IMG/VR virus record: IMGVR_UViG_3300036766_000889
Reading direction: 5' to 3' (one strand)
Source of the DNA: a virus
Length of the DNA stretch: 64,000 nt
Position numbers and translations under genes: made by a program. Below are positions 30,496 through 49,266 of this stretch, in pieces; position 1 is the first letter of the stretch, and each line of letters begins with the position of its first letter. The notes under the pieces were generated by a model. It did not search any database and was not told the origin of the DNA. It saw only the letters and a list, made by a program, of their open reading frames with translations.

Positions 30496-31665
30496 TCATC
30501 CTTTAACACAGAGAATTTCTTTGAGACACGCCATAATCTCTACTAAATCTACCTGATAGGCCATAACTTGATCCAAGTCTTTGTAAGCACCTGGTATCTC
30601 ATCCAAAACTCCTTGGTCTTTTCGGCATTCGACTCCTGCCGTTTGTGCAGCCAAGTCCTCTAATGTGAACGTCCGTTTAGCAGCTCCACGGGACATTTTT
30701 CGTCCCGCCCCATGTGATGCTGAATGAAACGATTCTAAATTACCTAATCCGCGTACGATATAAGACTTAGTACCCATGGATCCAGGTATAATCCCCATTT
30801 CACCCAAGCGAGCAGATATGGCACCTTTGCGCGTCACCAACACTTCCTCTCCGAAGTGATTCTCTTCAGAGACATAATTATGGTGACACGTTATGGGCAC
30901 TTCATATTTGACTTGTGGGAACATTTTGAACATTATATCCAAACTGATTTTCAACATGATCTGTCGGTTGGCTAATGCGTAATCTTGACACCAATTTAGA
31001 TCGCGCCGATATGCATCCATTTCAGTAGTCCCAGATAGAAATACTGCTAGATCCCTATCTGGTAATGCTTGGTTGTGCGTCAACTGCATGGCCTTACCGA
31101 TGTGGATCTCAGCTAACGTCTTACCGATATTACGAGATCCGGAATGCAACATTATCCATACACTTTGATCTTCATCTAAGCAAAGAGACCAAAAATGATT
31201 GCCGCCTCCGAGCGTCCCCATTTGCTTGCGTGCTTTGCCAAGAATATCCTGAACTTTGTCATGCAAATTATGAAATTCGTCCCATAATTTATGCTTGTCA
31301 GCATATTTATTAGTATACTCATGAGCGTTGAACCCGACAGGGATCTTCGCTTCAATCTCCAGCCGCAACGCTTGCAGCGAGTTCGGGAGATCTGATGCCA
31401 TGAGGTTGGTTTTAACTGCGATCATTCCACAGCCAATATCCACACCTACCGCGCTTGGAGATACCGCACCCTTCATAGCGATTACAGAACCTACCGTCGC
31501 TCCTTTGCCATAGTGGACATCAGGCATGACCGCAATATGATGGAAAACCCAAGGTAGAGAAGCAACGTTTCTTAGTTGGTCTAGGGCGCTACTCTCAACC
31601 TCATGAATTGGCACCCACAACTTAACCGGAACAGTCTTCCCTTTAATTTCTGAAATTGACATCAC
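30496..31665 (-). CDS. rtcB: RNA ligase RtcB
   Basis: MPDVHYGKG, GVDIGCG, GTLGGGNHF, HSGSR, CHHNY, SHGAGR, DEIPGAYK. Confidence 0.97.
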   Translation of the reverse strand: MMSISEIKGKTVPVKLWVPIHEVESSALDQLRNVASLPWVFHHIAVMPDVHYGKGATVGSVIAMKGAVSPSAVGVDIGCGMIAVKTNLMASDLPNSLQALRLEIEAKIPVGFNAHEYTNKYADKHKLWDEFHNLHDKVQDILGKARKQMGTLGGGNHFWSLCLDEDQSVWIMLHSGSRNIGKTLAEIHIGKAMQLTHNQALPDRDLAVFLSGTTEMDAYRRDLNWCQDYALANRQIMLKISLDIMFKMFPQVKYEVPITCHHNYVSEENHFGEEVLVTRKGAISARLGEMGIIPGSMGTKSYIVRGLGNLESFHSASHGAGRKMSRGAAKRTFTLEDLAAQTAGVECRKDQGVLDEIPGAYKDLDQVMAYQVDLVEIMACLKEILCVKG

Positions 31666-32252
31666 AAACCCTCACCGATTTCCCACCGAATGAATCGTCG
31701 GATATTAACCTTTTCACCAAGCTTGGCGCTTAATTCTACTTGAATTTGTTCGATGGTCTTACCTGGCATGGCCACCGATTCCTGCTCAAGCAAGCAGACC
31801 TCGGAACACCACTTCATATACTTGCCCGAGAAAATCTTCTGTTTCCGATCCTCTGGAACATCCACAGGAATTTGAGCCCTAAACACAGCTTCTTGGGCTT
31901 CCCACGCTTCTAAGGGAACCTGTTGTTCACGCACTGCCAACGGGGATGTCGCTACGATTTGAAACATCACCAAATCAGCGAATTGTTTGAAGTCAACAGA
32001 TTTCGCTGCAAAGTCCGTCTCGCAATTGATTTCAACCACAGCAACGATCTTCCCATCACTGTGGTTGTAGGAAAACACCTTGCCTTCGGTCGCAAGTCGC
32101 CCCGCCCGTTCGGCAGCCTTGATGATGCCGCGCTTCTTGAGCAACTCCAGCGCTTGCTCCACATCGCCACCTGACTCTTCAAGCGCTTTACGACAAGCAT
32201 CCATCCCGACGCCCGATCGCATTCTAATTTCTTTGATTTTTTCTACACTCAT
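31662..32252 (-). CDS. tsf: translation elongation factor Ts (short form)
   Basis: IKEIRMRSGVGMDACRKAL...EINCETDFAA...IRRFIRW. Confidence 0.95.
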   Translation of the reverse strand: MSVEKIKEIRMRSGVGMDACRKALEESGGDVEQALELLKKRGIIKAAERAGRLATEGKVFSYNHSDGKIVAVVEINCETDFAAKSVDFKQFADLVMFQIVATSPLAVREQQVPLEAWEAQEAVFRAQIPVDVPEDRKQKIFSGKYMKWCSEVCLLEQESVAMPGKTIEQIQVELSAKLGEKVNIRRFIRWEIGEGL

Positions 32253-32593
32253 AGTGTATACTACACTAGAGAGTTGCGTATTTACGGGGATGAGTAAACC
32301 TACCCCCCCCCCCCCATATATTACGCTAGCTGAGACTGCGCCACGTACCGGAGTCGTAACCGTTGTACTTACGGACTTCGTGCCTCGGACAACACTTGCA
32401 GTGACGAAACAGCGGACGTTGCTGAGCGTCTACTTCGGCTCCGTAGAGCCAAGCGTGCGCGCCGAACAGACAAAACAAGGCGTCAAGGAAACGAAGCATC
32501 AGTTCAACCTATTGTTGGGGTGGTTGTCTTGACTGGCCTTCTAAAGCTAGCAGCTCGAACAATCGTTTCATGGCCGCTGCTAACGCAGCAAAG

Positions 32594-32962
32594 TCATCGG
32601 CGTCCAGGTCGTCCAACATTTTCCCAAACATGGGCTTTAGCCGAGCTTCTGGTATGAGCCCGAGAATTCGGGACACCTGCATGGCTATCCGAACCACTTC
32701 CCCGGTATTGCTGTCGATTTTTTTTCTTCACGGCCCCCGTCTCCTTCGGAGACGAAGTAAACCAGTTCGCCATCGACGGATCTGTGCCTTTGTTGTGGAG
32801 GCTGACCGGAAAGCTAACGCGCAGCCATTTAGACGAAGGCGTCGTTTTCTTGCAGAAGCCGCATGTGGTGTTTCCGTCTGGCCGACGTTCCATCGTAGTT
32901 TTCAACGGGCTGTCTTTCCCGCAGGAGGGGCAGAACCCGTATCCGTTATCACGTGCTTTCAT
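32594..32962 (-). CDS. zinc-ribbon hypothetical protein
   Basis: YGFCPSCG...ERRPDGNTTC. Confidence 0.45.
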   Translation of the reverse strand: MKARDNGYGFCPSCGKDSPLKTTMERRPDGNTTCGFCKKTTPSSKWLRVSFPVSLHNKGTDPSMANWFTSSPKETGAVKKKNRQQYRGSGSDSHAGVPNSRAHTRSSAKAHVWENVGRPGRR

Positions 32963-33197
32963 AGAATTTCAAAAAGCGCAGCCGGTTGACACGGGATCTG
33001 GACATCGAAACCTTCGCGGCCCGTTGTAACTGTCCATAGTCACTATCAGAGTTTTACCACATGTACAGACTCCAGAAACAGGCTCGCCTCCAATCCAGAT
33101 TTGGCTGGGAACATAGACAGTCGGAATCAGATGGAACGTGGAATATGACCTGAAAGAGACGCCTCCGAGAATCACCCATTTCATGTGGTCGCCTGTA

Positions 33198-33596
33198 TTA
33201 GCGCTTTGGTTCATTTGTATCTTCTACGGGTAGTCCAGCGGCCTGCTGAAGCCGCGTTGCGTCTTGAAGAAGAAGCTTCGTTTCAGCTTTGAGCGCTTTC
33301 ACTTCAAGTCCAAGCATCTGAACTCTCAAAGCCAACAACTCCATCGGCTGTGCTTCAGCCTTCTGTTTTTCCTGAAGCTCTGCCCAAGCCACGAGTACCG
33401 CCCATACTGTAGCGACGCTCAAAAGGACAAGGACAAGAAAAAGTGGGCCGAACTCAACCACCTGGTACCAGAAGTAATGTCGTGCGGACTCCTTGCGTTC
33501 TTCGTCCGTTGGAAACCCTGGAAACCCTGGGAGCAGGATGCGGTCTGGACGTGTCGCTGGCGGTTTACTCATCGGTGCACTCCAACGTGTTCTCAA
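33198..33596 (-). CDS. membrane-anchored coiled-coil protein
   Basis: One TM helix followed by a coiled coil. Confidence 0.5.
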   Translation of the reverse strand: MRTRWSAPMSKPPATRPDRILLPGFPGFPTDEERKESARHYFWYQVVEFGPLFLVLVLLSVATVWAVLVAWAELQEKQKAEAQPMELLALRVQMLGLEVKALKAETKLLLQDATRLQQAAGLPVEDTNEPKR

Positions 33597-33639
33597 CGTA
33601 TAATCACATGGTCATAAAACATTAATATCACATAGTTTC

Positions 33640-34197
33640 ATGGAATTGAAATTATGTCGAAAATGTGGACAGGAAAAACCTTTGATAAAATTTCCGAAAC
33701 AGAGGAAAAATCCTATGAAAAGGACAAGTCCCTGTCTCAGATGCTCAGAGAAAAAACGATTAAATAATCCAAATAGTGTAATCGGGAAAACTGTTTTACG
33801 CAGAAGAAAACTGTATTTATCAAATCCAAATAACATTCCTTCTATCATTATTCGGAGCGCGAGACATTATGATAAAACTCATACTAAATACGGTTTTGAC
33901 TTGGATCATGATTTTGTTTCTGCATTAATTGCAGATGGATGTAAATACTGTGGTATTAATAATGTGAGGATGACGCTTGATCGTATTGATAATCAGTTAG
34001 GACATCTGAAATCAAATGTTCATCCAGCTTGTGTGCGATGCAATCATATCCGTGGTTCAATGCCATTTGATGCCTGGATGAATATGGTTCCTTCGATTCG
34101 AAAGACGTATGAACTTGGTCTATTCGCAGATTGGTGGATCGACACCAAGTCCATTTATAAATCAAATATCATACCATTTGTCTCTTCTAGTACCTAG
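33640..34197 (+). CDS. HNH-type homing endonuclease
   Basis: CKYCG...TLDRIDNQLGHLKSNVHPACVRCN. Confidence 0.8.
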   Translation: MELKLCRKCGQEKPLIKFPKQRKNPMKRTSPCLRCSEKKRLNNPNSVIGKTVLRRRKLYLSNPNNIPSIIIRSARHYDKTHTKYGFDLDHDFVSALIADGCKYCGINNVRMTLDRIDNQLGHLKSNVHPACVRCNHIRGSMPFDAWMNMVPSIRKTYELGLFADWWIDTKSIYKSNIIPFVSSST

Positions 34198-34799
34198 GGT
34201 TCTAGTTCAGCGTCCCAATACAACCAAGAACGCCAGCATTCTGGAATGTCCTTTATAGATTCCATACGTAAAGCTGCAATCGGAAGCGACTTGGGACGTA
34301 CCGGCTGATTCAAAAGGTACATACCGGCTTCAGCGGGCGTACGATTACGCTTGATGGAGTTGCACGGGTAGCAACTCATCACGATGTTCTCCCAGACCGT
34401 TTTACCGCCTTGGGCACGAGGAATTACATGATCAAAATTCAGATCACGCATATTGTGCTTGGCTCCGCAATACTGACAAGCGAACTTGTCTCGAGTCAGC
34501 ACGTTGATCCGGCTGAACTTCACTACTTTCTTCTTGCCGATCTTACCGAGCAGTCGGATTACGGCCGGAACCCTAACCACGAACGTATCCGGGTCAGAGT
34601 CCTCCACGCCAAGCTCGAACCAGGCAAGCATCTGCTTGCTGACCTGCAAGCCATTAGCTGCGTCCCTGGAAATAGCCCGGACAACGTCCGTGTACAGCTC
34701 TACGACTTCAGCACGACCGTCGTGAAGAAGCTGGGCAGCACGCTGCCAACTCACGACTCGGTGAGGTTGAAAACCAATATCTAGGACTAATGTTCTCAT
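34194..34799 (-). CDS. HNH endonuclease (McrA-like)
   Basis: RDKFACQYCG...DHVIPRAQGG..WENIVMSCYPCN. Confidence 0.9.
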   Translation of the reverse strand: MRTLVLDIGFQPHRVVSWQRAAQLLHDGRAEVVELYTDVVRAISRDAANGLQVSKQMLAWFELGVEDSDPDTFVVRVPAVIRLLGKIGKKKVVKFSRINVLTRDKFACQYCGAKHNMRDLNFDHVIPRAQGGKTVWENIVMSCYPCNSIKRNRTPAEAGMYLLNQPVRPKSLPIAALRMESIKDIPECWRSWLYWDAELEP

Positions 34800-34811
34800 A
34801 TTAATTATTAA

Positions 34812-34937
34812 GTGGTAACAAAATTTAGTGATTCAATTTCAGCTGCTCTACCACTGAGCTATACATAACTTTCGCTATGTAATTGGACTTGAACCAATGA
34901 CCCGCTGTTTGGTTGTAGAACCACCGGCATTTACCAC
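34812..34937 (-). ncRNA. yrlA: YrlA-type Y RNA with permuted tRNA-like module
   Basis: Terminal stem GTGGT/ACCAC; T-arm (TTGGTTCAAGTCCAA), closed acceptor-like stem (ACATAGC-GAAA-GTTATGT), then D-arm (AGCTCAGTGGTAGAGC); just downstream of Ro60. Confidence 0.85.
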
Positions 34938-34968
34938 ACAATAAATGGAAACTATACCATAAACATAT

Positions 34969-35172
34969 GCTGACAACAAGGTTCGCAGAGATGTTTACAT
35001 TATCGGTGTAATCCCATGCAGCATTTGTCAACGTTATTTATACTGACAACGAAATTCGTAGAGATTTTTACAGTTTAAATGTAATCCCTACAGCATTTGT
35101 CAGCGTTATTTGTACTGACGACAAAATTTACAGAGATTCTTTTTACCTGTAGTCCCTGCAGCATTCGTCAGT
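34969..35172 (-). repeat. three tandem ~60-nt Y-RNA-like hairpin units (34969-35032, 35042-35104, 35114-35172)
   Basis: Each unit reads YTGACRAATGCTGYA(T)GGGAYTACA...ATCTCT...TTGT/TCGT..GTCAG, closed by a terminal stem; conserved spacer (G)TAYAAATAAC. Confidence 0.8.
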
Positions 35173-35178: not shown

Positions 35179-36735
35179 TTATCCTACACCTATCATTTTC
35201 TCAATCTTTTCGACCCAGGCATCTTTATTGCCACCGTCAATGAAACTTGAAATCACACCGAACACTGCATCACTGAAACCACCAACGTTCAAACGGTCTT
35301 CATCGGTGATTACTTGTGCAGTTTGATTCGGTGTTAGGTCAATACACACAAGCTTGGCTTTACGATTACGCCTCTTGAAAGACAACCACTCGGTCGATAA
35401 ACCGGTACCTCTACGATAACCCCTATCAGCCCAGCTTTCGTTGTCGGAGACATATATCACAAGGTCAGCATTTGCATTTTCCTCGTTAAGCAAAGCGAGT
35501 GGAGCAGAACAGGTGGTACCGCCGCCTCCCACACTTGCAATTTGGGTAGCTAGAGTCATCACACTATCACGAGGATTGATCTTCAAATCAACAACATCTG
35601 TTTCAAACGGGATAACTCTTGCGTTTGGATTCTTGCGCAAAATCGCGGCAGCAATCAACGCAGCTATGTCTATGCAACGAGCCTTAGATGTAGCACCTTG
35701 ACGTTGTCCAGTAATCGGGCTACTCATGCTACCGGAAACGTCTACACAGACTACAACGTTACAATTGTAGCTCGGCACGTTGTTCAGCGAATGCTCCATC
35801 GCGTCCTGTAACGCGTTGGTCAATTCGGCAGGAATGTCAGTTGCATTCAAATATGCCATAAGTAGCTGGTATGGAAATACCCGCGCCTTATTGATTTCAT
35901 CAACATTGCGCAAACGTGCAGCCAGTAGACTAACCATTTCTGGGTTGTCTAGCACACCGTGACGCTTGAACGTGTTGAGATTCATACGAGTCATCTGCCA
36001 ACCAGCATTCTTTGCAACGGTTGTCCAGCCAGCCGTATCAAGATTAAGAGAGTCTAGCATCTGAAATGGGACGTCCGGGATGATCTGACTACGGTCAACC
36101 TTATAATTCTCGTACGCACGTACGAGCTCCGGAAGGTGTTCGACAGTATACGGCTTACCAATTAGATAAGCATACAACGCCTTACGATCGTCGCTAACCG
36201 GGTTCGGGCGAACCATCTTAACCAGATCAGATAGAGACGGCTTCTTTCCGACGCTATCTCGGAAAAGTTGGTCCGATGACCGAGATGCAAACCATTCACG
36301 AAGCATGCGTCGAGGAGCAGAACCAAAGGACTTACGGGACGTCTTACCAGATCGGACAATTTGCGCGAAATTTCTCGCCATTTTGCCATTATCGATAACT
36401 CGTGGAAACACAAGCTTAGCTGCAAGTAAGCCTTCTGGACCACGAGAACATAAATGCGCAAGCAAAATCGCTGGCATATCCTTCATATGACCAAGTTGGC
36501 GTGCATATACAGCGACTTTAGCCACATAACTAACTTCACAGTTAGCTGCGTGCTTCAAAACTTCATCCAACTGGTCAGACGCAGCAGCATAGTACGTGTT
36601 ACCGAAGCAACCGGTAGACGCAATTTGAGCAAGAGCTTGCTTTGACGTAAGCGAGTATGCATTCCCACCGGCATGATTTACAGCCGTTGAAACATGAGCC
36701 TGAGGCAGAGTGTTAAATAGTTGTTGATTTGTCAT
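35179..36735 (-). CDS. rsr: Ro60/Rsr TROVE-domain RNA-binding protein with vWA domain
   Basis: NHAGGNAY, MTRMNLNTF, RVFPYQLL, DVSGSM (MIDAS), GGT.CSAPL, SDNESW. Confidence 0.95.
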   Translation of the reverse strand: MTNQQLFNTLPQAHVSTAVNHAGGNAYSLTSKQALAQIASTGCFGNTYYAAASDQLDEVLKHAANCEVSYVAKVAVYARQLGHMKDMPAILLAHLCSRGPEGLLAAKLVFPRVIDNGKMARNFAQIVRSGKTSRKSFGSAPRRMLREWFASRSSDQLFRDSVGKKPSLSDLVKMVRPNPVSDDRKALYAYLIGKPYTVEHLPELVRAYENYKVDRSQIIPDVPFQMLDSLNLDTAGWTTVAKNAGWQMTRMNLNTFKRHGVLDNPEMVSLLAARLRNVDEINKARVFPYQLLMAYLNATDIPAELTNALQDAMEHSLNNVPSYNCNVVVCVDVSGSMSSPITGQRQGATSKARCIDIAALIAAAILRKNPNARVIPFETDVVDLKINPRDSVMTLATQIASVGGGGTTCSAPLALLNEENANADLVIYVSDNESWADRGYRRGTGLSTEWLSFKRRNRKAKLVCIDLTPNQTAQVITDEDRLNVGGFSDAVFGVISSFIDGGNKDAWVEKIEKMIGVG

Positions 36736-36780
36736 GATCTAACCTATAATAACATACAATCAAATAAGTTGTTTCAATCG

Positions 36781-36854
36781 TGCTGTGCGCGAGACTCGAA
36801 CTCGCAACCTCTCGGACCTAAACCGAGCGCCTCTGCCAATTGGGCTACCACAGC
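36781..36854 (-). tRNA. tRNA-Leu(TAG), short variable loop
   Basis: Cloverleaf; anticodon loop TTTAGGT. Confidence 0.85.
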
Positions 36855-36861
36855 AAAACAA

Positions 36862-37009
36862 CGGATGGGTTGGACTTACACCAACAGAGCGCCTGGGCTG
36901 GAGTCGAACCAGCTTCTTACCGTTCAGGAGCAAGCTCGTCAGCTTCGCAGCCTCGGTCGATATTCAGCTCGCTAGCAGCCTATTCCCGCCATTCACTGCG
37001 TTGCCATCC
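36862..37009 (-). ncRNA. unassigned tRNA-like RNA with two T-loop hairpins
   Basis: Terminal GGATGG/CCATCC stem; GCTGG-TTCGACT-CCAGC and GTTGG-TGTAAGT-CCAAC. Confidence 0.45.
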
Positions 37010-37095
37010 TGGTGCAAGAGATGGGATTTGAACCCATAAGACCTTTCGGTCGGATGATTTTAAGTCATCTGCGTATTCCATTCCGCCACTCTTGC
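37010..37095 (-). tRNA. tRNA-Leu(TAA)
   Basis: Long variable arm; encoded CCA. Confidence 0.95.
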
Positions 37096-37117: not shown

Positions 37118-37219
37118 AACCAACCACCAAACAATGCGGGCATCGAACCCACTCAGGTTTCACAGCAGTCTCCAGAGTTGCCACGCCCTGCTGGGGCTAC
37201 TCTTGTTTGGCGGTTGGTT
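37118..37219 (-). ncRNA. tRNA-shaped RNA with 17-bp terminal stem
   Basis: AACCAACCGCCAAACAA/TTGTTTGGTGGTTGGTT; D-like GCCC/GGGC; T-arm GTGGG-TTCGATG-CCCGC. Confidence 0.55.
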
Positions 37220-37262: not shown

Positions 37263-37916
37263 CTAAACTCGTCCGGAAGCGAAAGCCTTAGCAAATTCTC
37301 GTTTGAAAACTTCCGTCTGATCTTCGGGAAGTATGCCGACGTGGCGATAGAATTCAGTAATTGGGCGTACTACGGGAGCCAAAAAGCTTTCTCGTGATCC
37401 TCTCTGGCCCATGACTGTGGCTTCAATTGGTGTTGCCTTACGGGCGTAATAATTCCAGTTTTTCAAGGAAGTAAGAAATAAAGCGTAGGCCATATTTCCT
37501 ACAACATCCACGATAGCTGCCATATGATGGCCAACGCCATCATTGTGCGTGCAAATAGACCCAACTTTGATCATAGACAAAGGTATGACAGGTGGCGTGA
37601 TATCCGAAACTAGGGGAATTACTTTTTCATCAACGAGACTAAAAGGAGGTGGGAACTCCTCGAGATACTTCAGCATCTCTTCAGCTTTCTGCCGTGGTAG
37701 CGTCGAATCATTATCAAATGCAATAATAGTTGCCGAAGCAAAAATGAACTCATGAACCCCAACATCAGTGCGCGTATAAAACGTTCGAAAAAAACCTTTT
37801 TTTCCACGCAACACGCCACATGTCCACTCTATCATCGTTGCAACAGGCTTTGACTTTGGTATCGCTTTCCCACTGATATAATCTTTCAATGTGAAATCGT
37901 CGTCATTCATAGTCAA
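37263..37916 (-). CDS. hypothetical protein
   Basis: 217-aa ORF inside the tRNA array. Confidence 0.65.
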   Translation of the reverse strand: MTMNDDDFTLKDYISGKAIPKSKPVATMIEWTCGVLRGKKGFFRTFYTRTDVGVHEFIFASATIIAFDNDSTLPRQKAEEMLKYLEEFPPPFSLVDEKVIPLVSDITPPVIPLSMIKVGSICTHNDGVGHHMAAIVDVVGNMAYALFLTSLKNWNYYARKATPIEATVMGQRGSRESFLAPVVRPITEFYRHVGILPEDQTEVFKREFAKAFASGRV

Positions 37917-38218: not shown

Positions 38219-38235
38219 TAATGTAACGAATTCAG

Positions 38236-42080: not shown

Positions 42081-42365
42081 ATGATGAAACCACTAGAAGC
42101 CCTAGACAGTGCGATAAGTTATGGTCTCAGGCACCATCAATTCAATCGACGTGGAGTGTATGGAAAAACTCCCGGAGCAGTCATCGGACGAATTGGTGAC
42201 GAAGCTCGAGAAGCTTTATCCAAACTCACATCTGATGAATTAGCTGGTGTGCGTATTGAAAAAGATGAAGTAGGTAGTGATGATTATTTCGCGGATCTTG
42301 AGGTCCGGAAACTCAAGATAGCTTTTGATCAAAAATGCAAGTATCGTGTTACACGACCTTCATAG
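42081..42365 (+). CDS. hypothetical protein, antisense insertion in the tRNA array
   Basis: 94-aa ORF between tRNAs. Confidence 0.45.
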   Translation: MMKPLEALDSAISYGLRHHQFNRRGVYGKTPGAVIGRIGDEAREALSKLTSDELAGVRIEKDEVGSDDYFADLEVRKLKIAFDQKCKYRVTRPS

Positions 42366-42436
42366 GGCCCGCACCGCGAATTGAACGCGGGTCTCGATCT
42401 TACCGGGATCGAATACTACCATTGTACTATGCGGGC
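42366..42436 (-). tRNA. tRNA-Thr(GGT)
   Basis: Cloverleaf; C33. Confidence 0.88.
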
Positions 42437-42443
42437 AAACTAG

Positions 42444-42516
42444 AGCCCCTGATCGGGATCGAACCGACCTAGCCCTCCTTACGAAAGAGGTACCTCTCCA
42501 TTGAGGTGACAGGGGC
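42444..42516 (-). tRNA. tRNA-Thr(CGT)
   Basis: Cloverleaf. Confidence 0.88.
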
Positions 42517-42519
42517 ATC

Positions 42520-42592
42520 GGTGGAGATCCGGAGAATCGAACTCCGATTTCTAGCTTGCAAGGCTAGCACACGCCCGTTGTGTTAGATCCCC
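42520..42592 (-). tRNA. tRNA-Ala(TGC)
   Basis: G3-U70. Confidence 0.9.
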
Positions 42593-42601
42593 ATGATACA
42601 G

Positions 42602-42673
42602 TGGACGTGGCTGGAATCGAACCAGCGGCTTCCTGCGAGTCATGCAGGCACTCGGCCTCTGAGCTACACGTCC
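42602..42673 (-). tRNA. tRNA-Val(GAC)
   Basis: Anticodon loop ATGACTC. Confidence 0.88.
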
Positions 42674-42681
42674 GTATAAAT

Positions 42682-42757
42682 TGGTAGGCCGTGAGGGGAT
42701 CGAACCCTCTCCTGTCGCTTATAAGGCGACTGCACTGAACCACTGTGCTAACGGCCC
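42682..42757 (-). tRNA. tRNA-Ile(TAT)
   Basis: GTCGC-CTTATAA-GCGAC; CCA. Confidence 0.9.
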
Positions 42758-42950: not shown

Positions 42951-43014
42951 GATTCCTCCTATGCTATGCTACAAAACCGGTCCATGCAGAGATAATCGAA
43001 CTCCCATAGTTCGC

Positions 43015-43569
43015 CTATAACAACAAACGTCTGGACTCCAGGCTACTCTCCGAAGACTCTCGATCGGCTAACTCATGCAACTCGCCATGACAGTTGGCGC
43101 AGACCAGCATGGTCTTATCCAATTCCAGCTTCAACTTAGCCCAGCCTGATACCGATCTTGTTGCTACCGTGAAATCCTTACTTGCTGGATCCGTATGGTG
43201 GAAAACCATCGAACGAAGACACTTATCATAACCGCAGCGACAACATACCCCGCCTTTATAGGCGACGGCCATGGCTTTGAGCGATGTTCGTTTTCGGTTG
43301 GCTACGCAAGAGTTGCAGAAAACCCTGGTGGCCCCGCGCCTTGCGCTTCGCAAATAACTATATTTGCGAAAACAGCTGGTGCACCTAATTTCTACAGGCT
43401 TCCGGGTATGCCTAGATCCAGGCAAAATTGGCCGCGAATTTCTGGAACCGTAGGGAGAGCAGGTAAAGCAATACTTCCTCTTGGAAAGAGCCATCCGCCT
43501 TCCGTTTATAATTACCGTGGCTGGTATTTCAACGTCGCAAGCCAAGCACCGCTTAGTGGTAGTAGACAT
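43015..43569 (-). CDS. HNH homing endonuclease
   Basis: KGGVCCRCGY...FHH...ELDK..LVCANCH. Confidence 0.85.
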   Translation of the reverse strand: MSTTTKRCLACDVEIPATVIINGRRMALSKRKYCFTCSPYGSRNSRPILPGSRHTRKPVEIRCTSCFRKYSYLRSARRGATRVFCNSCVANRKRTSLKAMAVAYKGGVCCRCGYDKCLRSMVFHHTDPASKDFTVATRSVSGWAKLKLELDKTMLVCANCHGELHELADRESSESSLESRRLLL

Positions 43570-43631: not shown

Positions 43632-43705
43632 TGGTTGGCCCGGAGGGAATTGAACCCTCGCCGCCCGCTTATCAAGCGGATGCACGACCTTCGTGCTGCG
43701 GGCCA
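43632..43705 (-). tRNA. tRNA-Ile(GAT)
   Basis: Cloverleaf; CCA. Confidence 0.92.
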
Positions 43706-43737
43706 ATGACATCCCCTTCCACTAGACGATGCGTGGA

Positions 43738-43814
43738 TGGTGCTCCAGGCAGGACTCGAACCTGCATAAAAGCCGCTTTAGGAAAGCGGTGCCCATCCTT
43801 TGGACCACTGGAGC
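43738..43814 (-). tRNA. tRNA-Arg(CCT)
   Basis: Cloverleaf; CCA. Confidence 0.92.
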
Positions 43815-43816
43815 AT

Positions 43817-43893
43817 TGGGTTACATGGCGGGAATCGAACCCAGCTAACACCTGATCCACAATCAGGCCGCTATCCATTAGCGTTCATGCAAC
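43817..43893 (-). tRNA. tRNA-His(GTG)
   Basis: G-1:C73; CCA. Confidence 0.88.
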
Positions 43894-43998
43894 ATAACAC
43901 AGTTTAGGGCCCTTGCGAGGGGTCAATCTCTTACGAGATTCTGCTTCCCGTCACTACAAAGTTTGGCTTTGCGTTTCACCAAGAGTCCCATCCTGTGC

Positions 43999-44074
43999 GG
44001 TCGGAGTGACTGGAATCGAACCAGCTCAATCTCTTGCTCCCGAAGCAAGCGGGCAGCCATTACCCCACACTCCG
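43999..44074 (-). tRNA. tRNA-Pro(CGG)
   Basis: Cloverleaf. Confidence 0.9.
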
Positions 44075-44191
44075 TAAAAGAAGACCCCTGATAGCACTCT
44101 ATGGCTTGCTGTACCCGTGAGAGATGGGCCGACGTGCAAACCGAGTAATCTACCGTTTCTCAATCCCTGCCGGGGTCACCGCAGGAAACAG

Positions 44192-44263
44192 TCGAGGTGG
44201 CAAGAATCGAACTTGCGATCTCTGCATCCCAAATGCAGCGCCATTCCACTTGGCTACACCTCG
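44192..44263 (-). tRNA. tRNA-Pro(TGG)
   Basis: Cloverleaf. Confidence 0.92.
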
Positions 44264-44369: not shown

Positions 44370-44456
44370 GGCGGAAGACGGAGGACATGCTCCCCAGACG
44401 CTTGCGCGTCCCCTTGGATTAGCAATCCAGGATGATCCTTGATCATTTCGTCTTCC
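44370..44456 (-). tRNA. tRNA-Ser(GCT) with 8/4 fold
   Basis: Acceptor GGAAGACG/CGTCTTCC; T-stem GGGG/CCTC; long variable arm; G73. Confidence 0.8.
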
Positions 44457-44482
44457 AAATTGTCACAGCTCTTTGTTGATTA

Positions 44483-44680
44483 TCAGCGACGATGAAAAGC
44501 CACGATGAGAAGGATCACTCCATCCTTGTCTTGGTAGCGCCATTCCCCGCGATGCTTTTCGTACCGCTCCAGGCTACCCAAAAGACCACGGGCTTGATTC
44601 CTGGTTAGATCAAACCACGGTCCCCATGATTTGGAGCCGTGGAAGCGACAAGCGGTGTACTCGATCCATCCGTGTTCCAT
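44483..44680 (-). CDS. small hypothetical protein
   Basis: 65-aa ORF between tRNAs. Confidence 0.45.
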   Translation of the reverse strand: MEHGWIEYTACRFHGSKSWGPWFDLTRNQARGLLGSLERYEKHRGEWRYQDKDGVILLIVAFHRR

Positions 44681-44716
44681 GACCTAAAGACGTTTGCCTT
44701 TTAGCCAACTGACACA

Positions 44717-44819
44717 TGGCGGAGAAAATAGGAGTCAGCGGAAACCGGACGAGAACGCCATGCCTTGCGGCACACACCATTTTCGAGATGGGTCTTGCTC
44801 CTCAGCAAGTTCAGTTTCC
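44717..44819 (-). pseudogene. 8/4 tRNA-Ser(CGA) with shortened T-loop, plus an orphan tRNA 3' end
   Basis: GGAAACTG/CGGTTTCC; T-arm GGCG-TTCT-CGTC; followed by GACTCCTATTTTCTCCGCCA. Confidence 0.65.
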
Positions 44820-44848
44820 AGAGAGCGGGACCATTCAAGGTCGAACTC

Positions 44849-44970
44849 TGTCTTGCTCCTGCAAGTTCCGTTTCCAATCAGAAATCGTACCGCCCAAGGT
44901 CGAACTCTTGTCTTGCTCCTGCAAGTTCCGTTTCCAATCAGAAATCGTACCGCCCAAGGTCGAACTCTTG
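44849..44970. repeat. exact 60-bp tandem duplication containing tRNA-Ser 5' fragments
   Basis: Identical sequence at period 60; minus strand GGAAACGGAACTTGCAGGAGCAAGAC resembles the tRNA-Ser(CGA) 5' end. Confidence 0.9.
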
Positions 44971-45145
44971 CGGGTTCGATCGTTTCCGATCCGGTTTTTT
45001 AACCAGGCAATGTGCAGGGCTGGTGTTGCTTGCGTTTTACCATTACCATTCTTTGCTGAGTCCAACTCCTGTTTCCAGTACAACTCCTGTTTCCGGTATA
45101 GTTCACTTTCCATTTCGTTCATAATTCACCTCATGGATAATACAG

Positions 45146-45228
45146 CGGAAGACGCCGGAATCGAACCGACTCAGCCTTGCGGCCTTATTTGCTTTCCAAG
45201 CAAACTCCTGACCATTCGGATGTCTTCC
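45146..45228 (-). tRNA. tRNA-Ser(GGA)
   Basis: Long variable arm; G73. Confidence 0.88.
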
Positions 45229-45233
45229 GGTAG

Positions 45234-45317
45234 CGGAGAAGGCGAGAATCGAACTCGCTCAGCCTTTTGGGCCTTATCGGTATTCAAAGCCGACTCCTGA
45301 CCATTCGGGTCTTCTCC
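45234..45317 (-). tRNA. tRNA-Ser(TGA)
   Basis: Long variable arm; G73. Confidence 0.88.
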
Positions 45318-45534: not shown

Positions 45535-45574
45535 GTTTGAACTCTACCGCGTAAGCCACAGACAGTACACTTAG

Positions 45575-45646
45575 CGTCCCGTATCGGAATCGAACCGATG
45601 TTCCCTGACTGAGAATCAGGTTGCCTGGCCTCTAGCAGAACGGGAC
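45575..45646 (-). tRNA. tRNA-Glu(CTC)
   Basis: Cloverleaf. Confidence 0.9.
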
Positions 45647-45647
45647 A

Positions 45648-45724
45648 TGGCGGGACCGACGAGAATCGAACTCGCCTCGACCTGGCGTGACAAGCCAGCG
45701 GCGTCTCCAGACGCCTCCGATCCC
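45648..45724 (-). tRNA. tRNA-Asp(GTC)
   Basis: Cloverleaf; G73; CCA. Confidence 0.9.
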
Positions 45725-45829
45725 AAAAGCCGACCGCGACCAACGGAAGTTGTTGATCCGCTGACCAGTGATTCATCGTGCGCACGAACGCCACGGCCAC
45801 GGCGTGTCTTGGCTAGCTAGACCTTCGAC

Positions 45830-45903
45830 TGGTTCGGGCGGAGAGGATCGAACTCCCATAGAAGGTATCAAAAACCTTCGTCTTTCCATTAGACGACGCC
45901 CGA
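45830..45903 (-). tRNA. tRNA-Gln(TTG)
   Basis: U1-A72; CCA. Confidence 0.88.
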
Positions 45904-45910
45904 ATAACAC

Positions 45911-45983
45911 GGCAGGGGTAGAGGGAATCGAACCCACGTTGACTGCTTCAGAAACAGCTGCCAAACCACTTGGCGATACCCCA
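45911..45983 (-). tRNA. tRNA-Gln(CTG)
   Basis: Cloverleaf. Confidence 0.9.
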
Positions 45984-45989
45984 ACGAAG

Positions 45990-46123
45990 TGGACACAACG
46001 GGAATCGAACCCGCTAATTCCTGTTTTTGCAGGATACGGAAAACTGCAGTGACTGATATTTTCGGGTGGCCATCTCCCTACTAACTCAGATCCAGTTTTC
46101 CAGCGCACCGTGGCTTTGTGCCC
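45990..46123 (-). ncRNA. tRNA-Ala-like RNA with a long arm replacing the anticodon arm
   Basis: GGGCACA/TGTGTCC-A with G3-U70; T-arm GCGGG-TTCGATT-CCCGT; GGAAAACTG/CAGTTTTCC arm. Confidence 0.65.
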
Positions 46124-46136
46124 GTAACAATTGTAG

Positions 46137-46208
46137 TGCTCCCACGGAGAATCGAACTCCGCTCGCCGGGGTGAAAACCAAGCATTCTGACCACTAAACT
46201 ATGGGAGC
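46137..46208 (-). tRNA. tRNA-Glu(TTC)
   Basis: Cloverleaf; weak anticodon stem. Confidence 0.85.
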
Positions 46209-46282
46209 AAACTTTCTAATGTGGTACGTGGGGTCAAACTTAATCTTCAACATCCGGACCAGTACCTTGGTCCGTGAATTTG

Positions 46283-46354
46283 AGCGACTGATGTGAATCG
46301 AACACATGAAGTCCATTTTGGCAAAATGGTGCCTTACCACTAGGCTACAGTCGC
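46283..46354 (-). tRNA. tRNA-Gly(GCC)
   Basis: Cloverleaf; U73. Confidence 0.92.
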
Positions 46355-46397
46355 GTGCGGACCCTCAAACACTGTTACTGCATGTTGATTAATACTG

Positions 46398-46470
46398 TGG
46401 CTAGGGTCGGTATCGAACCGACTACACCCCGGGCTTCAACCGAGTGCTCTACCGTTTGAGCTACCTAGCC
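46398..46470 (-). tRNA. tRNA-Phe(GAA)
   Basis: Cloverleaf. Confidence 0.92.
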
Positions 46471-46473
46471 AAA

Positions 46474-46657
46474 ACCTTGATCTTCGGCAGTTGGTTCCGT
46501 AGCAAGGAACCGGCCAGACTTAGCTTTTGGAGGTTGCTAGACCCTCCTACTTGCCGACCGCATGAGCCTTTCGAGGGGCGTGCGTTCTATAGGCCATAAG
46601 CCTGCTGTCTGGTATTGAAGCCTACGACCCGCGAGTTAACTCAGGTCTGATCAAGGT
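46474..46657 (-). ncRNA. unassigned ~185-nt multi-stem structured RNA
   Basis: Terminal ACCTTGATC/GATCAAGGT stem enclosing several hairpins. Confidence 0.55.
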
Positions 46658-46659
46658 AG

Positions 46660-46728
46660 CAAGCCGTGACGGAATCGAACCGCCGCCTACTGGTTTGGAA
46701 TCAGTTCGGTCACCATGACCTACGGCTT
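46660..46728 (-). tRNA. tRNA-Trp(CCA), minimal D-arm
   Basis: AAGCCGT/ACGGCTT-G; 5' end overlaps the GIY-YIG stop codon. Confidence 0.85.
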
Positions 46729-47653
46729 ATTTCAATAAATTATTCGACAGAGCAGTTGTTTTAACAACTGGAGTGTTCTTACTAGCATGGTATCTAAGCA
46801 TCACTTTAGAATTTTTGCATTTCTTACAAATTAAATATGGTCTTCCAGTATCTGACTCTCCTGTTCTAACATAACAGTTTTCAATAGGAACAATACCATG
46901 CACTTTACAAAGTTTATTGGTAGGCGACCTATCCTGTTGAAATTTAGTTTTAGCTTTTTCTGATATTGTTTTTGCTATTTTTGCCTTGCAATCGTTACTA
47001 ATAGATCTTCCAACAGCGGCAAGTTTGATATTCATCCTTGCCTTATCCGAAAATTTTCGGCCTCGACTACGAGAAGCGTTTTTTTCTATGATTTCATGAG
47101 TAAGAATGGGTGGTTTGCAACGTCCATCTCGATGAGCTTTTTTGGCTGCTATAGATATTTTTCTTTTCACATCCGGGAGAGCTTGAATATGACGTGATAT
47201 TTCAATTCTCTTTGCTCGAGATTCTGATGTATTGAGTGCTGCTTTATTTGCAGCACGAGCTTGAGGTGTATGAAATCTAAGGACGACACCGTTTTGTTTT
47301 TCTCGATACTCTGGACGATCCCATGGATTTCGACGAATTGGATGCGGCGTATGAGATCCGCCCTTCATTAAGTTAAATCCAAACTTTGGATCTCGCGTAT
47401 TTTCTTGTTCGATTATCGCTTCTTCAGTCGCATTTGCACCTTCAAGGTCCCGACTCATCGCCAGAACTTCATGGGAGAAGGCATCCTTGCCATACTTACG
47501 AATTGCATTCGGAAAATACCAACGTCCGCCCTTGGAATTCTTAGCTTGGGAGCAATGTTGATTCCAACGATGCATCATTGTATGGCTAGTTAAGCCAATG
47601 TAACGACGACCCGATTCTATATGAGTGTGACAGTAAATGGTCCAGCGTTTCAT
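46727..47653 (-). CDS. GIY-YIG homing endonuclease with NUMOD-like repeats
   Basis: WTIYCHT...RRYIGLT...RW..H...AIRKYG...E...GFNL. Confidence 0.85.
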   Translation of the reverse strand: MKRWTIYCHTHIESGRRYIGLTSHTMMHRWNQHCSQAKNSKGGRWYFPNAIRKYGKDAFSHEVLAMSRDLEGANATEEAIIEQENTRDPKFGFNLMKGGSHTPHPIRRNPWDRPEYREKQNGVVLRFHTPQARAANKAALNTSESRAKRIEISRHIQALPDVKRKISIAAKKAHRDGRCKPPILTHEIIEKNASRSRGRKFSDKARMNIKLAAVGRSISNDCKAKIAKTISEKAKTKFQQDRSPTNKLCKVHGIVPIENCYVRTGESDTGRPYLICKKCKNSKVMLRYHASKNTPVVKTTALSNNLLK

Positions 47654-47675: not shown

Positions 47676-48092
47676 CTAACTTGACATGATTTCGATAACC
47701 TCGAGTTCTCGTAGAAAGTTAAGCAAAATTTCTGGAGTCATTTCCTTGAGAGGAAGCGCCTCAGTTTCCGCGATTACAGTGAAATCTCGTTCTTTGTATT
47801 CGCTCTTCTTACCGTAAACAAGTCGATCGATCTTTTGAATCATTCCACCATATGAAGATAGGATATAAACTGCACCCTTATGATGTTTACGATTGAGTAT
47901 GTCAAACTGAAATGACCAATTTTTATCTCCCCGGACGTATTTGTAAGGAGAATTTCGTGAACGTTGTTCGAATATCCGTTGTAAGAACGGGTCTTTACAA
48001 TCTAGTTCTTGCTCCTTCCAGCGCATTTCGCGCAAAACATTATTCAGGTAATCAAGTGAAGGGTTTACCTCTACTATGTATTTTCTTGACAT
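47676..48092 (-). CDS. hypothetical protein
   Basis: 138 aa; ends VIEIMSS. Confidence 0.6.
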   Translation of the reverse strand: MSRKYIVEVNPSLDYLNNVLREMRWKEQELDCKDPFLQRIFEQRSRNSPYKYVRGDKNWSFQFDILNRKHHKGAVYILSSYGGMIQKIDRLVYGKKSEYKERDFTVIAETEALPLKEMTPEILLNFLRELEVIEIMSS

Positions 48093-48182: not shown

Positions 48183-48266
48183 TGGCTCCGAGTCCAGGAT
48201 TCGAACCTGGAATGGATTTCTCCGCACGGGTAACAACCGTGTGCCTTACCATTAGACTAACTCGGA
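48183..48266 (-). tRNA. tRNA-Asn(GTT) with long variable arm
   Basis: U1-A72, G73, CCA; variable arm GGA-GAAA-TCC. Confidence 0.88.
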
Positions 48267-48336
48267 ATAAAAAACAATTCGCGCACCGAGCCATGCCGAG
48301 CAACCCCGATAGGGCCCGGTGCGCGTTGAAACAACT

Positions 48337-48356
48337 TATTCAATTGTCAAAGACTC
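48337..48356 (-). promoter_or_regulatory. boxA-like antitermination element
   Basis: GAGTCTTTGACAATTGAATA resembles rrn boxA TGCTCTTTAACA. Confidence 0.5.
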
Positions 48357-48404
48357 AGACACTTAGCGTTCGGAGGTTGATCCCTGACGGGCCTCGTCGT
48401 GTCT

Positions 48405-48479
48405 TGGTCGGCAGCACGAGAATCGAACTCGCCTAAGCCTGGGTAAGAACCAGGTGCATCTCCTTGATGCTAACTGCCG
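48405..48479 (-). tRNA. tRNA-Lys(CTT)
   Basis: Cloverleaf; CCA. Confidence 0.88.
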
Positions 48480-48506
48480 ATGTTTTCTTGAGCACTCAGT
48501 TTTTGT

Positions 48507-48698
48507 CTAATGTTTCGTTGTGGACTCTTCCTGTTCATTACCACACCAATGACAACGTTGAGTCATGACGCCTTCTTTGATACCGGCGTCTTCCCACATA
48601 CAAACACCGGTTCTTCCGCAGGGTGGAACTGGTTTAAGTAACTCACGTGTAGCATTTTTAAACTCACGTTCACGTTTGGTTAGTGTCCTAGTTTTCAT
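48507..48698 (-). CDS. small zinc-ribbon protein
   Basis: MKTRTL...CHWCG. Confidence 0.5.
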   Translation of the reverse strand: MKTRTLTKREREFKNATRELLKPVPPCGRTGVCMWEDAGIKEGVMTQRCHWCGNEQEESTTKH

Positions 48699-48711
48699 GA
48701 CATGTTTCTTG

Positions 48712-48787
48712 GGTGGGACCGGCGGGACTTGAACCCGCAACCGTTCGGTTAAAAGCCGACTGCTGCTTCCGATTGAGCTACGGCCCC
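48712..48787 (-). tRNA. tRNA-Lys(TTT)
   Basis: Cloverleaf. Confidence 0.92.
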
Positions 48788-48848
48788 AAGGAATACTTGA
48801 GTGCAGTAGCTAGGTTTGAGTTCCTTCATGATTACCGTGACTTTCTTG

Positions 48849-48934
48849 TGGTGGAGCCGTGCAGAGTCGAACTGCCTAGTCTAAGACCCGGCGTTTACAG
48901 CGCCAGTCGCCTTCCGAGGACGAACCCCGGCTCC
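48849..48934 (-). tRNA. tRNA-Tyr(GTA), atypical D region
   Basis: TGGCG-CTGTAAA-CGCCG; A73; CCA. Confidence 0.85.
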
Positions 48935-49015
48935 GTAATAGATACGAGAGCAGGTGAGCGTCGATAACTTTCGTGCAGTGGTTTGTGTGAATTGAACATT
49001 GTTATTTCGAACCCT

Positions 49016-49056
49016 AAAAACATTGAGACCGCCTCTAGTTTCCTAGGGCGGTCTCA
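49016..49056 (-). terminator. intrinsic terminator (attenuator) ahead of the tRNA array
   Basis: TGAGACCGCCCTAG-GAAA-CTAGAGGCGGTCTCA followed by ATGTTTTT. Confidence 0.8.
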
Positions 49057-49083
49057 CGCGAACGAGTGTTCTTGTGATTCCGC

Positions 49084-49227
49084 CTACGTCGTATCCTCAT
49101 GGCTAATGGGGCTGACGGCTGGGCGTTGATTCCCTCCGAGCCATATAAATGACGATGTCGCTTCCAAGCGTACGCCATTCAGCGTCGGCTGGACCGTCGT
49201 CATATAAGATTTTATGGATCTGGACAT
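49084..49227 (-). CDS. putative 47-aa leader peptide MSRSIKSYMTTVQPTLNGVRLEATSSFIWLGGNQRPAVSPISHEDTT
   Basis: Starts 10 nt after the -10 box; its stop codon overlaps the antiterminator strand. Confidence 0.6.
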   Translation of the reverse strand: MSRSIKSYMTTVQPTLNGVRLEATSSFIWLGGNQRPAVSPISHEDTT

Positions 49228-49237
49228 CGAAGTATTT

Positions 49238-49266
49238 ACTTTAGCACAGGCTGTTTATGGCGTCAA
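49238..49266 (-). promoter_or_regulatory. sigma70-type promoter of the tRNA/RNA-repair block
   Basis: TTGACG-17 nt-TAAAGT with extended TG. Confidence 0.75.

Follow-up and report, generated by a model that had tools for sequence, protein, structure and literature searches.

We have analyzed a 64-kb stretch of viral DNA, the IMG/VR record IMGVR_UViG_3300036766_000889, which we call the window. It contains a block of genes for translation and RNA upkeep, comprising an array of transfer RNAs (tRNAs), a transfer-messenger RNA (tmRNA), the protein Ro60 with Y RNAs, an HD phosphoesterase, the elongation factor EF-Ts and the RNA ligase RtcB, all encoded on the minus strand between 30496 and 48934. 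We conclude that the block is probably the translation island of a large phage, made up of swappable modules that act in parallel and are individually dispensable, and not one obligate pathway under one promoter. The phage is distantly related to Myxococcus phage Mx1. An earlier note on this DNA had described the block as an integrated system of translation rescue. The theme of rescue fits the parts and recurs elsewhere, with RtcB found behind tRNA arrays and Ro60 within the arrays of Mx1 and of Streptomyces phages, but the integration is contradicted by the relatives described below.

The tRNA array and the tmRNA would form the conserved core of the island, joined in this lineage by Ro60 and the Y RNAs, and the core would supply a nearly host-independent decoding set together with a ribosome-rescue RNA. 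Cargo modules acting on RNA ends and on translation would have accreted around it, probably aided by the many homing endonucleases. Together the modules would keep phage protein synthesis going when the host tRNAs are scarce, codon-mismatched or cut.

The components of the island, all on the minus strand, are as follows.

48183-48934, minus: tRNAs Tyr(GTA), Lys(TTT), Lys(CTT) and Asn(GTT) (ARAGORN, Rfam)
45574-46728, minus: tRNAs Trp, Phe, Gly(GCC), Glu(TTC), Gln(CTG), Gln(TTG), Asp(GTC) and Glu(CTC)
45984-46135, minus: tRNA-like element with a T-arm, inside the 45574-46728 sub-cluster
45651-45724, minus: the tRNA-Asp(GTC), Rfam tRNA 37.5 bits, anticodon loop UUGUCAC
44370-45317, minus: stretch of Ser tRNAs with an open reading frame (ORF) of 95 amino acids
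45233-45317, 45145-45228 and 44370-44456, minus: the Ser tRNAs TGA, GGA and GCT, respectively (ARAGORN, Rfam; TGA and GCT beyond the ARAGORN default)
43632-44263, minus: tRNAs Pro(TGG), Pro(CGG), His, Arg(CCT) and Ile(GAT)
41867-42757, minus: tRNAs Ile(TAT), Val(GAC), Ala, Thr(CGT), Thr(GGT), Ala and Thr(TGT)
41230-41302, minus: tRNA-Gly(TCC)
40590-40982, minus: tmRNA, RF00023 103.6 bits (gathering score 47), model positions 1-374; also found by ARAGORN
39979-40371, minus: tRNAs Cys, Arg(TCT), a tRNA with anticodon ATT, Arg(CCG) and Arg(ACG)
40141-40214, minus: the non-canonical tRNA with anticodon ATT, Rfam 39.9 bits
39111-39944, minus: HD phosphoesterase, PF01966; TIGR02692 positions 211-457 of 466, E 6e-30
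38398-39114, minus: ORF of 238 amino acids, its start overlapping the stop of the HD gene in the sequence GTGATG
38136-38308, minus: tRNAs Val(TAC) and Met(CAT)
36780-37095, minus: tRNAs Leu(TAA) and Leu(TAG)
35179-36735, minus: Ro60, with TROVE (E 6e-6) and vWA (vWA_Ro60, E 4e-20) domains
34966-35172, minus: three Y-like repeats of ~70 nt between Ro60 and the YrlA-type RNA, putative RNAs without covariance-model support
34809-34937, minus: YrlA-type Y RNA, full model RF02553, 64.5 bits, E 6e-13 (E 1e-14 locally)
31662-32252, minus: EF-Ts, short Thermus type, 196 amino acids, TIGR00116 134.9 bits (cutoff 104.05)
30496-31665, minus: RtcB RNA ligase, PF01139 408.5 bits, model positions 1-426, E 5e-122; phrog_1075 E 4e-135

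Thus the inventory drawn up in the earlier note is borne out. Its count of about 37 tRNAs for all 20 amino acids is reached with the 33 that ARAGORN finds at its default setting and four added by Rfam and relaxed ARAGORN, the tmRNA matches its model over the full length, and Ro60 is accompanied by a YrlA-type RNA and the three Y-like repeats. EF-Ts scores above its family cutoff and RtcB matches its family end to end with the catalytic motifs intact. The HD phosphoesterase is of the CCA type as stated, and corresponds to the C-terminal half of such an enzyme only.

The tRNA array and tmRNA

The 33 tRNAs and one tmRNA of the default ARAGORN search lie between 36780 and 48934. Under strict wobble the full set of 37 decodes 55 of the 61 sense codons, and covers 91% of the codons in 23 sampled phage genes. 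All 61 are decoded if U34 reads four ways, and only CUY, CCY and GCY need that reading. The CCA end is encoded in ~13 of the 37, and the other ~24 need CCA addition. The predicted tag of the tmRNA is ANDNAYVAPVLKAA (ARAGORN). No gene for SmpB was seen among the ORFs scanned in the 64-kb window.

Several members of the array are atypical. The tRNA-Asn(GTT) at 48183-48266 (minus) is 84 nt long with a stem-loop variable arm, and the tRNA-Met(CAT) at 38136-38218 (minus) is 83 nt long with a long variable region; both are unusual for their species. The tRNA-Ile(TAT) at 42682-42757 (minus) would read AUA directly, not by means of a lysidine-modified CAU tRNA. The ATT tRNA has its CCA encoded, A at position 33 and an odd T-loop, UGAAAAU; A34 is rare in bacteria except in tRNA-Arg(ACG). 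This RNA may be a pseudogene, or it may act as a decoy or in recoding. A different ATT tRNA, with the normal U33, occurs in the array of the IMG/VR contig G004 at 98134-98207 (positions 18134-18207, minus, of the locus L118). Between the tRNAs there are T-arm-like sequences of the GGAATCGAACC type at 36896-36918, 37131-37151, 42976-43009 and 45984-46016 (minus), which suggest further tRNA-like RNAs or tRNA remnants that are called neither at the default of ARAGORN nor at the gathering threshold of Rfam. Amid the Ser tRNAs, in the region of the 95-amino-acid ORF, lies a perfect tandem duplication of 60 nt (44849-44968).

Ro60 and the Y RNAs

The Ro60 protein matches phrog_850 over residues 7-498 (E 1e-45). 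Against the NCBIfam Rsr equivalog it scores 76.7 bits, where the cutoff is 900, and it is therefore a divergent member of the family. Its closest relative is the Ro60 protein of Mx1, with 47.8% identity. The YrlA-type RNA lies 242 nt downstream of the Ro60 stop codon on the same strand. Its Ro-binding stem is clearly recognizable, as are the T-arm and D-arm of its tRNA-like part, and its score is 4.5 bits below the gathering score of 69. Each of the Y-like repeats is closed by a stem, whose 5' strand carries AAUGC and whose 3' strand carries a UUUUGU-like sequence. Bacterial Ro60 with its Y RNA acts as a quality-control system that binds misfolded small RNAs and recruits exonucleases, and Y RNAs adjoining phage Ro60 genes were reported in 2014 (PMC4201824). 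In the window, Ro60 together with the YrlA-type RNA and the short Y-like RNAs would bind and triage misfolded or damaged small RNAs.

The HD protein and its coupled ORF

By its alignments the HD protein is the C-terminal half of a class II CCA-adding enzyme, of the kind described by the actinobacterial model. It aligns to residues 308-484 of the A-adding enzyme of Aquifex (A. aeolicus), and the HD dyad of the HDxGKP motif is kept, with LYHDVGKP corresponding to LFHDIGKP. The nucleotidyltransferase head (PF01743) was not found in the protein, whose match is confined to model positions 211-457, or elsewhere in the block. Phosphatase and 2',3'-cyclic phosphodiesterase activities at the 3' ends of tRNAs are ascribed to the HD domain of CCA enzymes, on the model of the E. 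coli enzyme. This view is consistent with the survey of jumbo-phage systems by Iyer, Anantharaman, Krishnan, Burroughs and Aravind (2021; PMC7824862). The phage protein would likewise remove 2',3'-cyclic or 3' phosphates at tRNA 3' ends, and any repair of CCA would depend on an enzyme from the host or from elsewhere in the phage, because no CCA-adding head is found in the block.

The HD ORF starts directly next to a tRNA gene. In addition, a possible tRNA-Met(CAT)-like element with a 3-bp D stem and a 6-bp anticodon stem lies over the annotated HD start (39907-39976, minus). If this element is real, the protein starts further downstream.

The 238-amino-acid protein coupled to the HD gene has 15 metagenomic homologues with 43-96% identity, and its predicted fold is confident (pLDDT 89.6). 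It has no sequence match in Pfam, PHROG, NCBIfam or the PDB, and its model has no credible fold match (best E 5e-3 with Foldseek, best Z 7.2 with VIA). We considered whether it might be the missing nucleotidyltransferase head of a split or permuted CCA enzyme, and rejected this as neither sequence nor fold supports it. Comparison of the model with TriTu, the immunity protein of an EF-Tu-ADP-ribosylating toxin, gives Z 6.2, which is within noise and serves as a lead only. The protein atlas gave nothing usable for this ORF or for another of 217 amino acids in the block.

RtcB

All of the RtcB motifs are conserved (MPDVHYG, GVDIGCG, GGGNHF, HSGSR, HHN and SHGAGR) on alignment with the P. horikoshii (1uc2) and T. 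thermophilus (2epg) proteins. The metal-binding Asp, Cys and His residues are retained, as is the His of the HGAGR motif that accepts guanosine monophosphate. The enzyme would seal 3'-phosphate or 2',3'-cyclic phosphate ends to 5'-OH ends in tRNA or ribosomal RNA (rRNA). rRNA is the substrate of RtcB2-PrfH (PMC9223846), and by analogy may be a substrate of the phage enzyme. We rejected a role as a splicing ligase for intron-bearing phage tRNAs. The long tRNAs for Met (83 nt), Asn (84 nt) and Lys (79 nt) have long variable regions, and no anticodon-loop introns are seen in them.

It is unlikely that the HD protein and RtcB act in sequence on the same break, because removal of the cyclic phosphate would destroy the substrate of RtcB. 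More probably they deal with different lesions, with the HD protein acting on acceptor-end damage and RtcB on internal cuts.

EF-Ts

Residues 3-193 of the phage EF-Ts align with residues 4-195 of the 196-residue T. thermophilus protein (1aip_C), that is end to end. Both the N-terminal UBA-like domain and the core carrying the TDF motif, which enters the nucleotide pocket of EF-Tu, are present. The NCETDF motif is kept, with D80 and F81 invariant in 22 relatives, and the bacterial QPF(V/I)KD stretch is replaced by QESVAMPGK. The protein would accelerate the recycling of EF-Tu, or protect it. The stop codon of its gene overlaps the RtcB start in the sequence GTGATG.

EF-Ts is the rarest part of the island. 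Matches are found in nine of 50,697 phage records, several of which are probably bacterial (one is a Salmonella enterica contig, others are unannotated fragments), and our literature search found no paper on a phage EF-Ts. The protein belongs to a phage clade of ~28 metagenomic protein clusters with 50-95% identity, and more distant versions occur in 25 other IMG/VR contigs, often beside tRNAs or tmRNA. Its nearest cellular relatives, which include proteins of Oligoflexia and Nannocystis, are at most 49% identical. Other viral EF-Ts genes (30-39% identity) are more distant than the bacterial ones, which suggests from these identities that viruses have captured EF-Ts repeatedly and independently. 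The EF-Ts relatives and the link to Mx1 together hint at a host among the Myxococcota or Bdellovibrionota.

One group of IMG/VR loci (L091, L092, L096, L100, L101, L102 and L109) encodes an EF-Ts of ~200 amino acids that is ~31% identical to that of the window, with a permuted tmRNA found by ARAGORN 3-5 kb downstream on the same strand. The neighbors in L096 (AAA ATPase, subtilase and papain-like protease) are unlike the bacterial rpsB-tsf context.

Presence and absence of the parts in relatives

We searched IMG/VR with EF-Ts, Ro60 and RtcB as queries, and made one metagenome scan, which apart from the contig L007 returned mostly bacterial tsf loci. Conserved synteny of the whole block was rejected, as no IMG/VR contig from these searches has all of the parts within the fetched flanks. 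Megablast of the whole block against the 50,697 phage records gave no match.

The most telling relative is L007, a metagenome contig of 4.5 kb that matches the window at 32510-31660 and 29066-26299, with 95% identity across EF-Ts and 99.5% across the genes on the primase side. RtcB is replaced there by a segment of 508 bp that contains an unrelated ORF of 135 amino acids, and the adjacent plus-strand endonuclease gene (29308-30297) is missing as well. Between phages that are nearly identical, RtcB is therefore a variable item of cargo, gained or lost together with a homing-type endonuclease gene.

In the complete genome of Mx1 (OR576727) a single strand bears Ro60 together with 37 tRNAs and a tmRNA. 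The array opens with tRNAs for Tyr and Lys, and its close is much like that of the window, with three Arg tRNAs followed by Met, Met, Val, Leu and Leu, a few kb short of Ro60. No homologue of RtcB, EF-Ts or HD was found in this genome, and a calcineurin-type phosphoesterase lies inside its tRNA array. In G004 (132.8 kb) an EF-Ts with 58% identity is followed by one small ORF and then by an RtcB with 79% identity, and ~38 tRNAs with a tmRNA lie ~22 kb upstream of this pair on the same strand. Neither Ro60 nor HD was found in G004, and the only genes it has in common with the window are EF-Ts, RtcB and two endonucleases. More widely, in nine of 20 IMG/VR RtcB loci at least five co-oriented tRNAs immediately precede the gene, accompanied in two cases by a tmRNA, and none of EF-Ts, Ro60 or HD was found near RtcB in these loci. 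Among 26 IMG/VR loci with EF-Ts-like genes, 17 have a tRNA or tmRNA within 10 kb.

Every module is thus absent from some relative that keeps the array, consistent with parallel helpers that are individually dispensable. It is on this ground that the description of the block as integrated fails.

Transcription of the block

The earlier note placed the block downstream of one clear promoter. The relevant elements are these.

49238-49266, minus: sigma-70-like site, TTGACG-17-TAAAGT, matching at 9 of 12 positions, with a TG extension
49018-49060, minus: hairpin with a U-run after it, AAUGUUUUU, resembling a terminator or attenuator and lying ahead of the first tRNA, downstream of the promoter-like site

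The block contains 24 sigma-70-like sites where shuffles give 27.2 +/- 4.7, which is chance frequency; several are internal, and some match equally well or better, such as that at 35204-35176 just ahead of the Y-like RNAs. The hairpin has a folding energy of -30.2 kcal/mol (z -5.2), and none of 200 shuffles folds as well. It may end transcription of the replication genes upstream, or attenuate that of the tRNA array. Moreover, genes for DnaB and an SNF2 helicase are co-oriented upstream. The single promoter is therefore not upheld. A search of direct repeats for repeated promoter-like motifs found only the similarity of tRNA T-arms and the Y-like repeats.

The single strand claimed for the block holds for every part named in the earlier note, but not for the block as a whole. 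An endonuclease gene on the plus strand at 33640-34197 lies inside it, and it is likely to be real; the block is therefore not purely one-stranded.

Some observations weigh against a set of independent modules. The overlap of EF-Ts and RtcB, together with their near-adjacency in G004, indicates some real coupling in that pair. It is possible that the whole block is co-transcribed, and ~10 ORFs in it that have no assigned function could tie parts together. The analysis covers a 64-kb window, and the relatives are mostly fragments.

Comparison with known systems

The concept of spare tRNAs combined with RNA repair as a counter-defence is already published for jumbo phages. In section 3.4.9 of their survey, Iyer and colleagues describe counters to tRNA-cutting second-line immunity that include tRNA sets, RtcB and ATP-grasp ligases, ROT/TROVE proteins with tRNA-like partners, and HD or calcineurin phosphatases, together with CCA-adding enzymes, peptidyl-tRNA hydrolases and ribosome-rescue factors (PMC7824862). 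EF-Ts and tmRNA are mentioned nowhere in that survey, and both are present in the window. Compared with the systems described there, the HD protein of the window stands alone without its nucleotidyltransferase half, and all of the parts lie in one 19-kb stretch. The unusual features here are the gene for EF-Ts, an HD protein of CCA type on its own, and how densely the parts are packed.

The block resembles a co-oriented region of ~19 kb in Streptomyces phage Blueeyedbeauty (MH536814, Stanwilliamsviridae) and its relatives, where by annotation a tRNA array cut by HNH genes has a Ro-like protein in its middle and a tmRNA, followed by enzymes for RNA end-healing and sealing. In contrast to the window, Blueeyedbeauty has an ATP-dependent RNA ligase and polynucleotide kinase instead of RtcB, has a band-7-like protein, and lacks EF-Ts and HD; its Ro60 is only ~25% identical. 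Mx1 has the closest Ro60, with 37 tRNAs and a tmRNA on the Ro60 strand, interspersed HNH genes and a phosphoesterase in the array, but the latter is of the calcineurin type, and small genes annotated as 'RNA ligase A' and peptidyl-tRNA hydrolase occur instead.

Among cellular systems, the Salmonella rsr-yrlBA-rtcBA operon, whose linkage and response to damaged tRNA are established (PMC7790460), likewise has Ro60, the tRNA-like YrlA, shorter Y RNA or RNAs and RtcB on one strand in one neighborhood (PMC7790460, PMC4201824). It differs in that the Y RNAs and RtcB of the window are ~3 kb apart, separated by an endonuclease, four small ORFs and EF-Ts, and in the context of a phage tRNA array. Neither RtcA nor RtcR was matched among the block ORFs in general family scans, in which small unassigned ORFs could hide them.

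Phage T4 carries a tRNA cluster with segB, encoding a GIY-YIG endonuclease, in the tRNA region, and its Pnkp and Rnl1 repair tRNA-Lys cut by PrrC. The logic is alike, in that a homing endonuclease lies within a tRNA cluster and enzymes reseal a cut tRNA. The systems differ in that T4 uses 5'-phosphate/3'-OH ligation chemistry and has only eight tRNAs, with no tmRNA, Ro60 or EF-Ts (see also the summary in PMC7824862).

Selective forces acting on the island

Defense against host tRNA-cleaving immunity and the supply of codons and tRNAs are comparably likely as the selective driver of such an island, and are not exclusive.

The alternative that survives best is that the tRNAs serve codon supply and host independence, either in a phage that would be AT-rich relative to its host or in one that itself degrades host RNA, and that the helpers maintain the tRNA pool in the face of processing errors, misfolded tRNAs and a high EF-Tu load, and are not an answer to attack. 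We regard this account as tenable, if on the doubtful side. Composition is in its favor. The GC content of the window is 44.5%, falling to 38.5% at third codon positions. Strict wobble lets the tRNA set read nine-tenths of the sampled codons, and the set includes species for A-ending codons, such as Ile(TAT), Leu(TAA) and Arg(TCT). The kin of EF-Ts (Oligoflexia and Nannocystis) and of Ro60 (a Myxococcus phage) hint at the host lineage; Myxococcus genomes are GC-rich, and the tRNA region of Mx1 has a GC content of 55.6%. The AT-richness is that of the phage DNA, and a mismatch with the codons of the host is presumptive. The many tRNAs lacking an encoded CCA end need maturation, and Ro60 with its Y RNA is a quality-control system in bacteria (PMC4201824), both in keeping with a role in upkeep. 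However, the set extends to G- and C-ending codons and so exceeds what compensation needs, and RtcB is not known to take part in the normal maturation of tRNAs in bacteria; no tRNA introns are seen.

In the reading of the earlier note, the block is one integrated and co-regulated operon that counters host anticodon nucleases and other tRNA-cleaving abortive infection systems. Spare tRNAs would replace those lost, HD would heal and RtcB seal the breaks, Ro60 and the Y RNA would act as chaperones, and the tmRNA and EF-Ts would provide rescue. The arrays of the window and Mx1 both begin with Tyr and Lys tRNAs, and phage tRNAs of these kinds are reported to rescue infection from tRNA-cleaving defenses. 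The active site of RtcB is intact, RtcB recurs behind phage tRNA arrays, and every part has an established activity that fits (PMC7824862, PMC7790460). The success of phage tRNAs against anticodon nucleases, PARIS and retrons is documented (PMC10264068, PMC11464382, PMC11555353); a phage tRNA neutralises PARIS (PMC11464382), and phage tRNAs evade retron defenses (PMC11555353). An anti-defence role may thus be part of what the island does. As a single operon the proposal is unlikely, since a near-identical phage lacks RtcB, Ro60, HD and EF-Ts are each absent from relatives that keep the array, and the promoter is indistinguishable from chance and followed by a strong hairpin. Nor would healing and then sealing form a linear path, as HD would destroy the cyclic phosphate that RtcB needs.

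It is distinctly less probable that the block is a passive accretion hotspot, in which RNA genes lie together more through common sites of insertion and a common history than through a joint function. Arrays tolerate insertions, and homing endonucleases would ferry neighboring genes in and out. The five homing-type endonuclease genes that stand free within the block or next to it and the intein of DnaB are consistent with this, as are the coincidence of the RtcB polymorphism with the adjoining endonuclease gene, the few genes held in common with G004 and the presence in the block of ~10 unrelated ORFs of unassigned function. However, homing endonucleases are common across the whole window and not in the block alone. 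Furthermore, the same functional classes lie beside arrays in unrelated phages by way of non-homologous genes, the calcineurin-type enzyme of Mx1 standing in for HD and the Rnl and Pnk of the Streptomyces phage for RtcB, and this argues for selection on function.

Finally, that EF-Ts and RtcB form a mobile cassette that large phages may acquire against defenses hitting tRNA and EF-Tu, with EF-Ts as a guard of EF-Tu or an exchange factor resistant to inactivation, seems very improbable, though if true the phage EF-Ts would be a new class of anti-defence protein.

Other genes of the block and its surroundings

The translation island, taken as a set of parallel modules, contains further genes.

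46727-47653, minus: GIY-YIG homing endonuclease, PF01541; phrog_314 E 7e-20
43015-43569, minus: HNH homing endonuclease, phrog_2255 E 2.7e-31
41430-41834, minus: staphylococcal-nuclease-like protein, PF00565 E 9e-9; phrog_452
34194-34799, minus: HNH endonuclease, PF14279 and PF01844, with homologues in Mx1 and G004
33640-34197, plus: Endonuclease VII/HNH-like, phrog_1035 E 3e-21, 46% identity to an ORF of G004
29308-30297, plus: Endonuclease VII/HNH-like, convergent with RtcB and just outside the block, phrog_3322 E 3e-24
47676-48092, minus: ORF of 138 amino acids, no family match
37263-38119, minus: ORFs of 68 and 217 amino acids, no match
32594-33848, minus: four small ORFs of 78, 132, 81 and 122 amino acids, the last conserved in L007

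More HNH or endonuclease VII-type genes lie outside the block at 1243-1986 (minus) and 8684-10258 (plus), so that the whole region is rich in homing endonucleases.

Upstream on the minus strand are the intein-bearing DnaB gene (49934-52771) and the SNF2 helicase (53683-55851). On the other side, beyond the convergent gene at 29308-30297, the minus-strand run resumes with a DnaG-type zinc-finger protein and then DNA polymerase. With DnaB and SNF2 on one side and the DnaG-like protein and polymerase on the other, the island appears as an insert in a region of replication genes. The intein lies inside the DnaB-type helicase and has a LAGLIDADG endonuclease domain. At 26667-27395 and 27471-28184 (minus) there are tandem paralogues of 242 and 237 amino acids, with ~69% DNA identity and no Pfam match.

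Significance

Since the overall concept is already in the literature, the island refines an existing picture and does not open a new question. It provides a compact natural example of how large phages build independence from host translation out of interchangeable modules. The near-identical phage that lacks RtcB offers a natural comparison for what RtcB buys a phage. The phage EF-Ts clade is the least explored piece of the island, and could show whether phages tune or protect EF-Tu.

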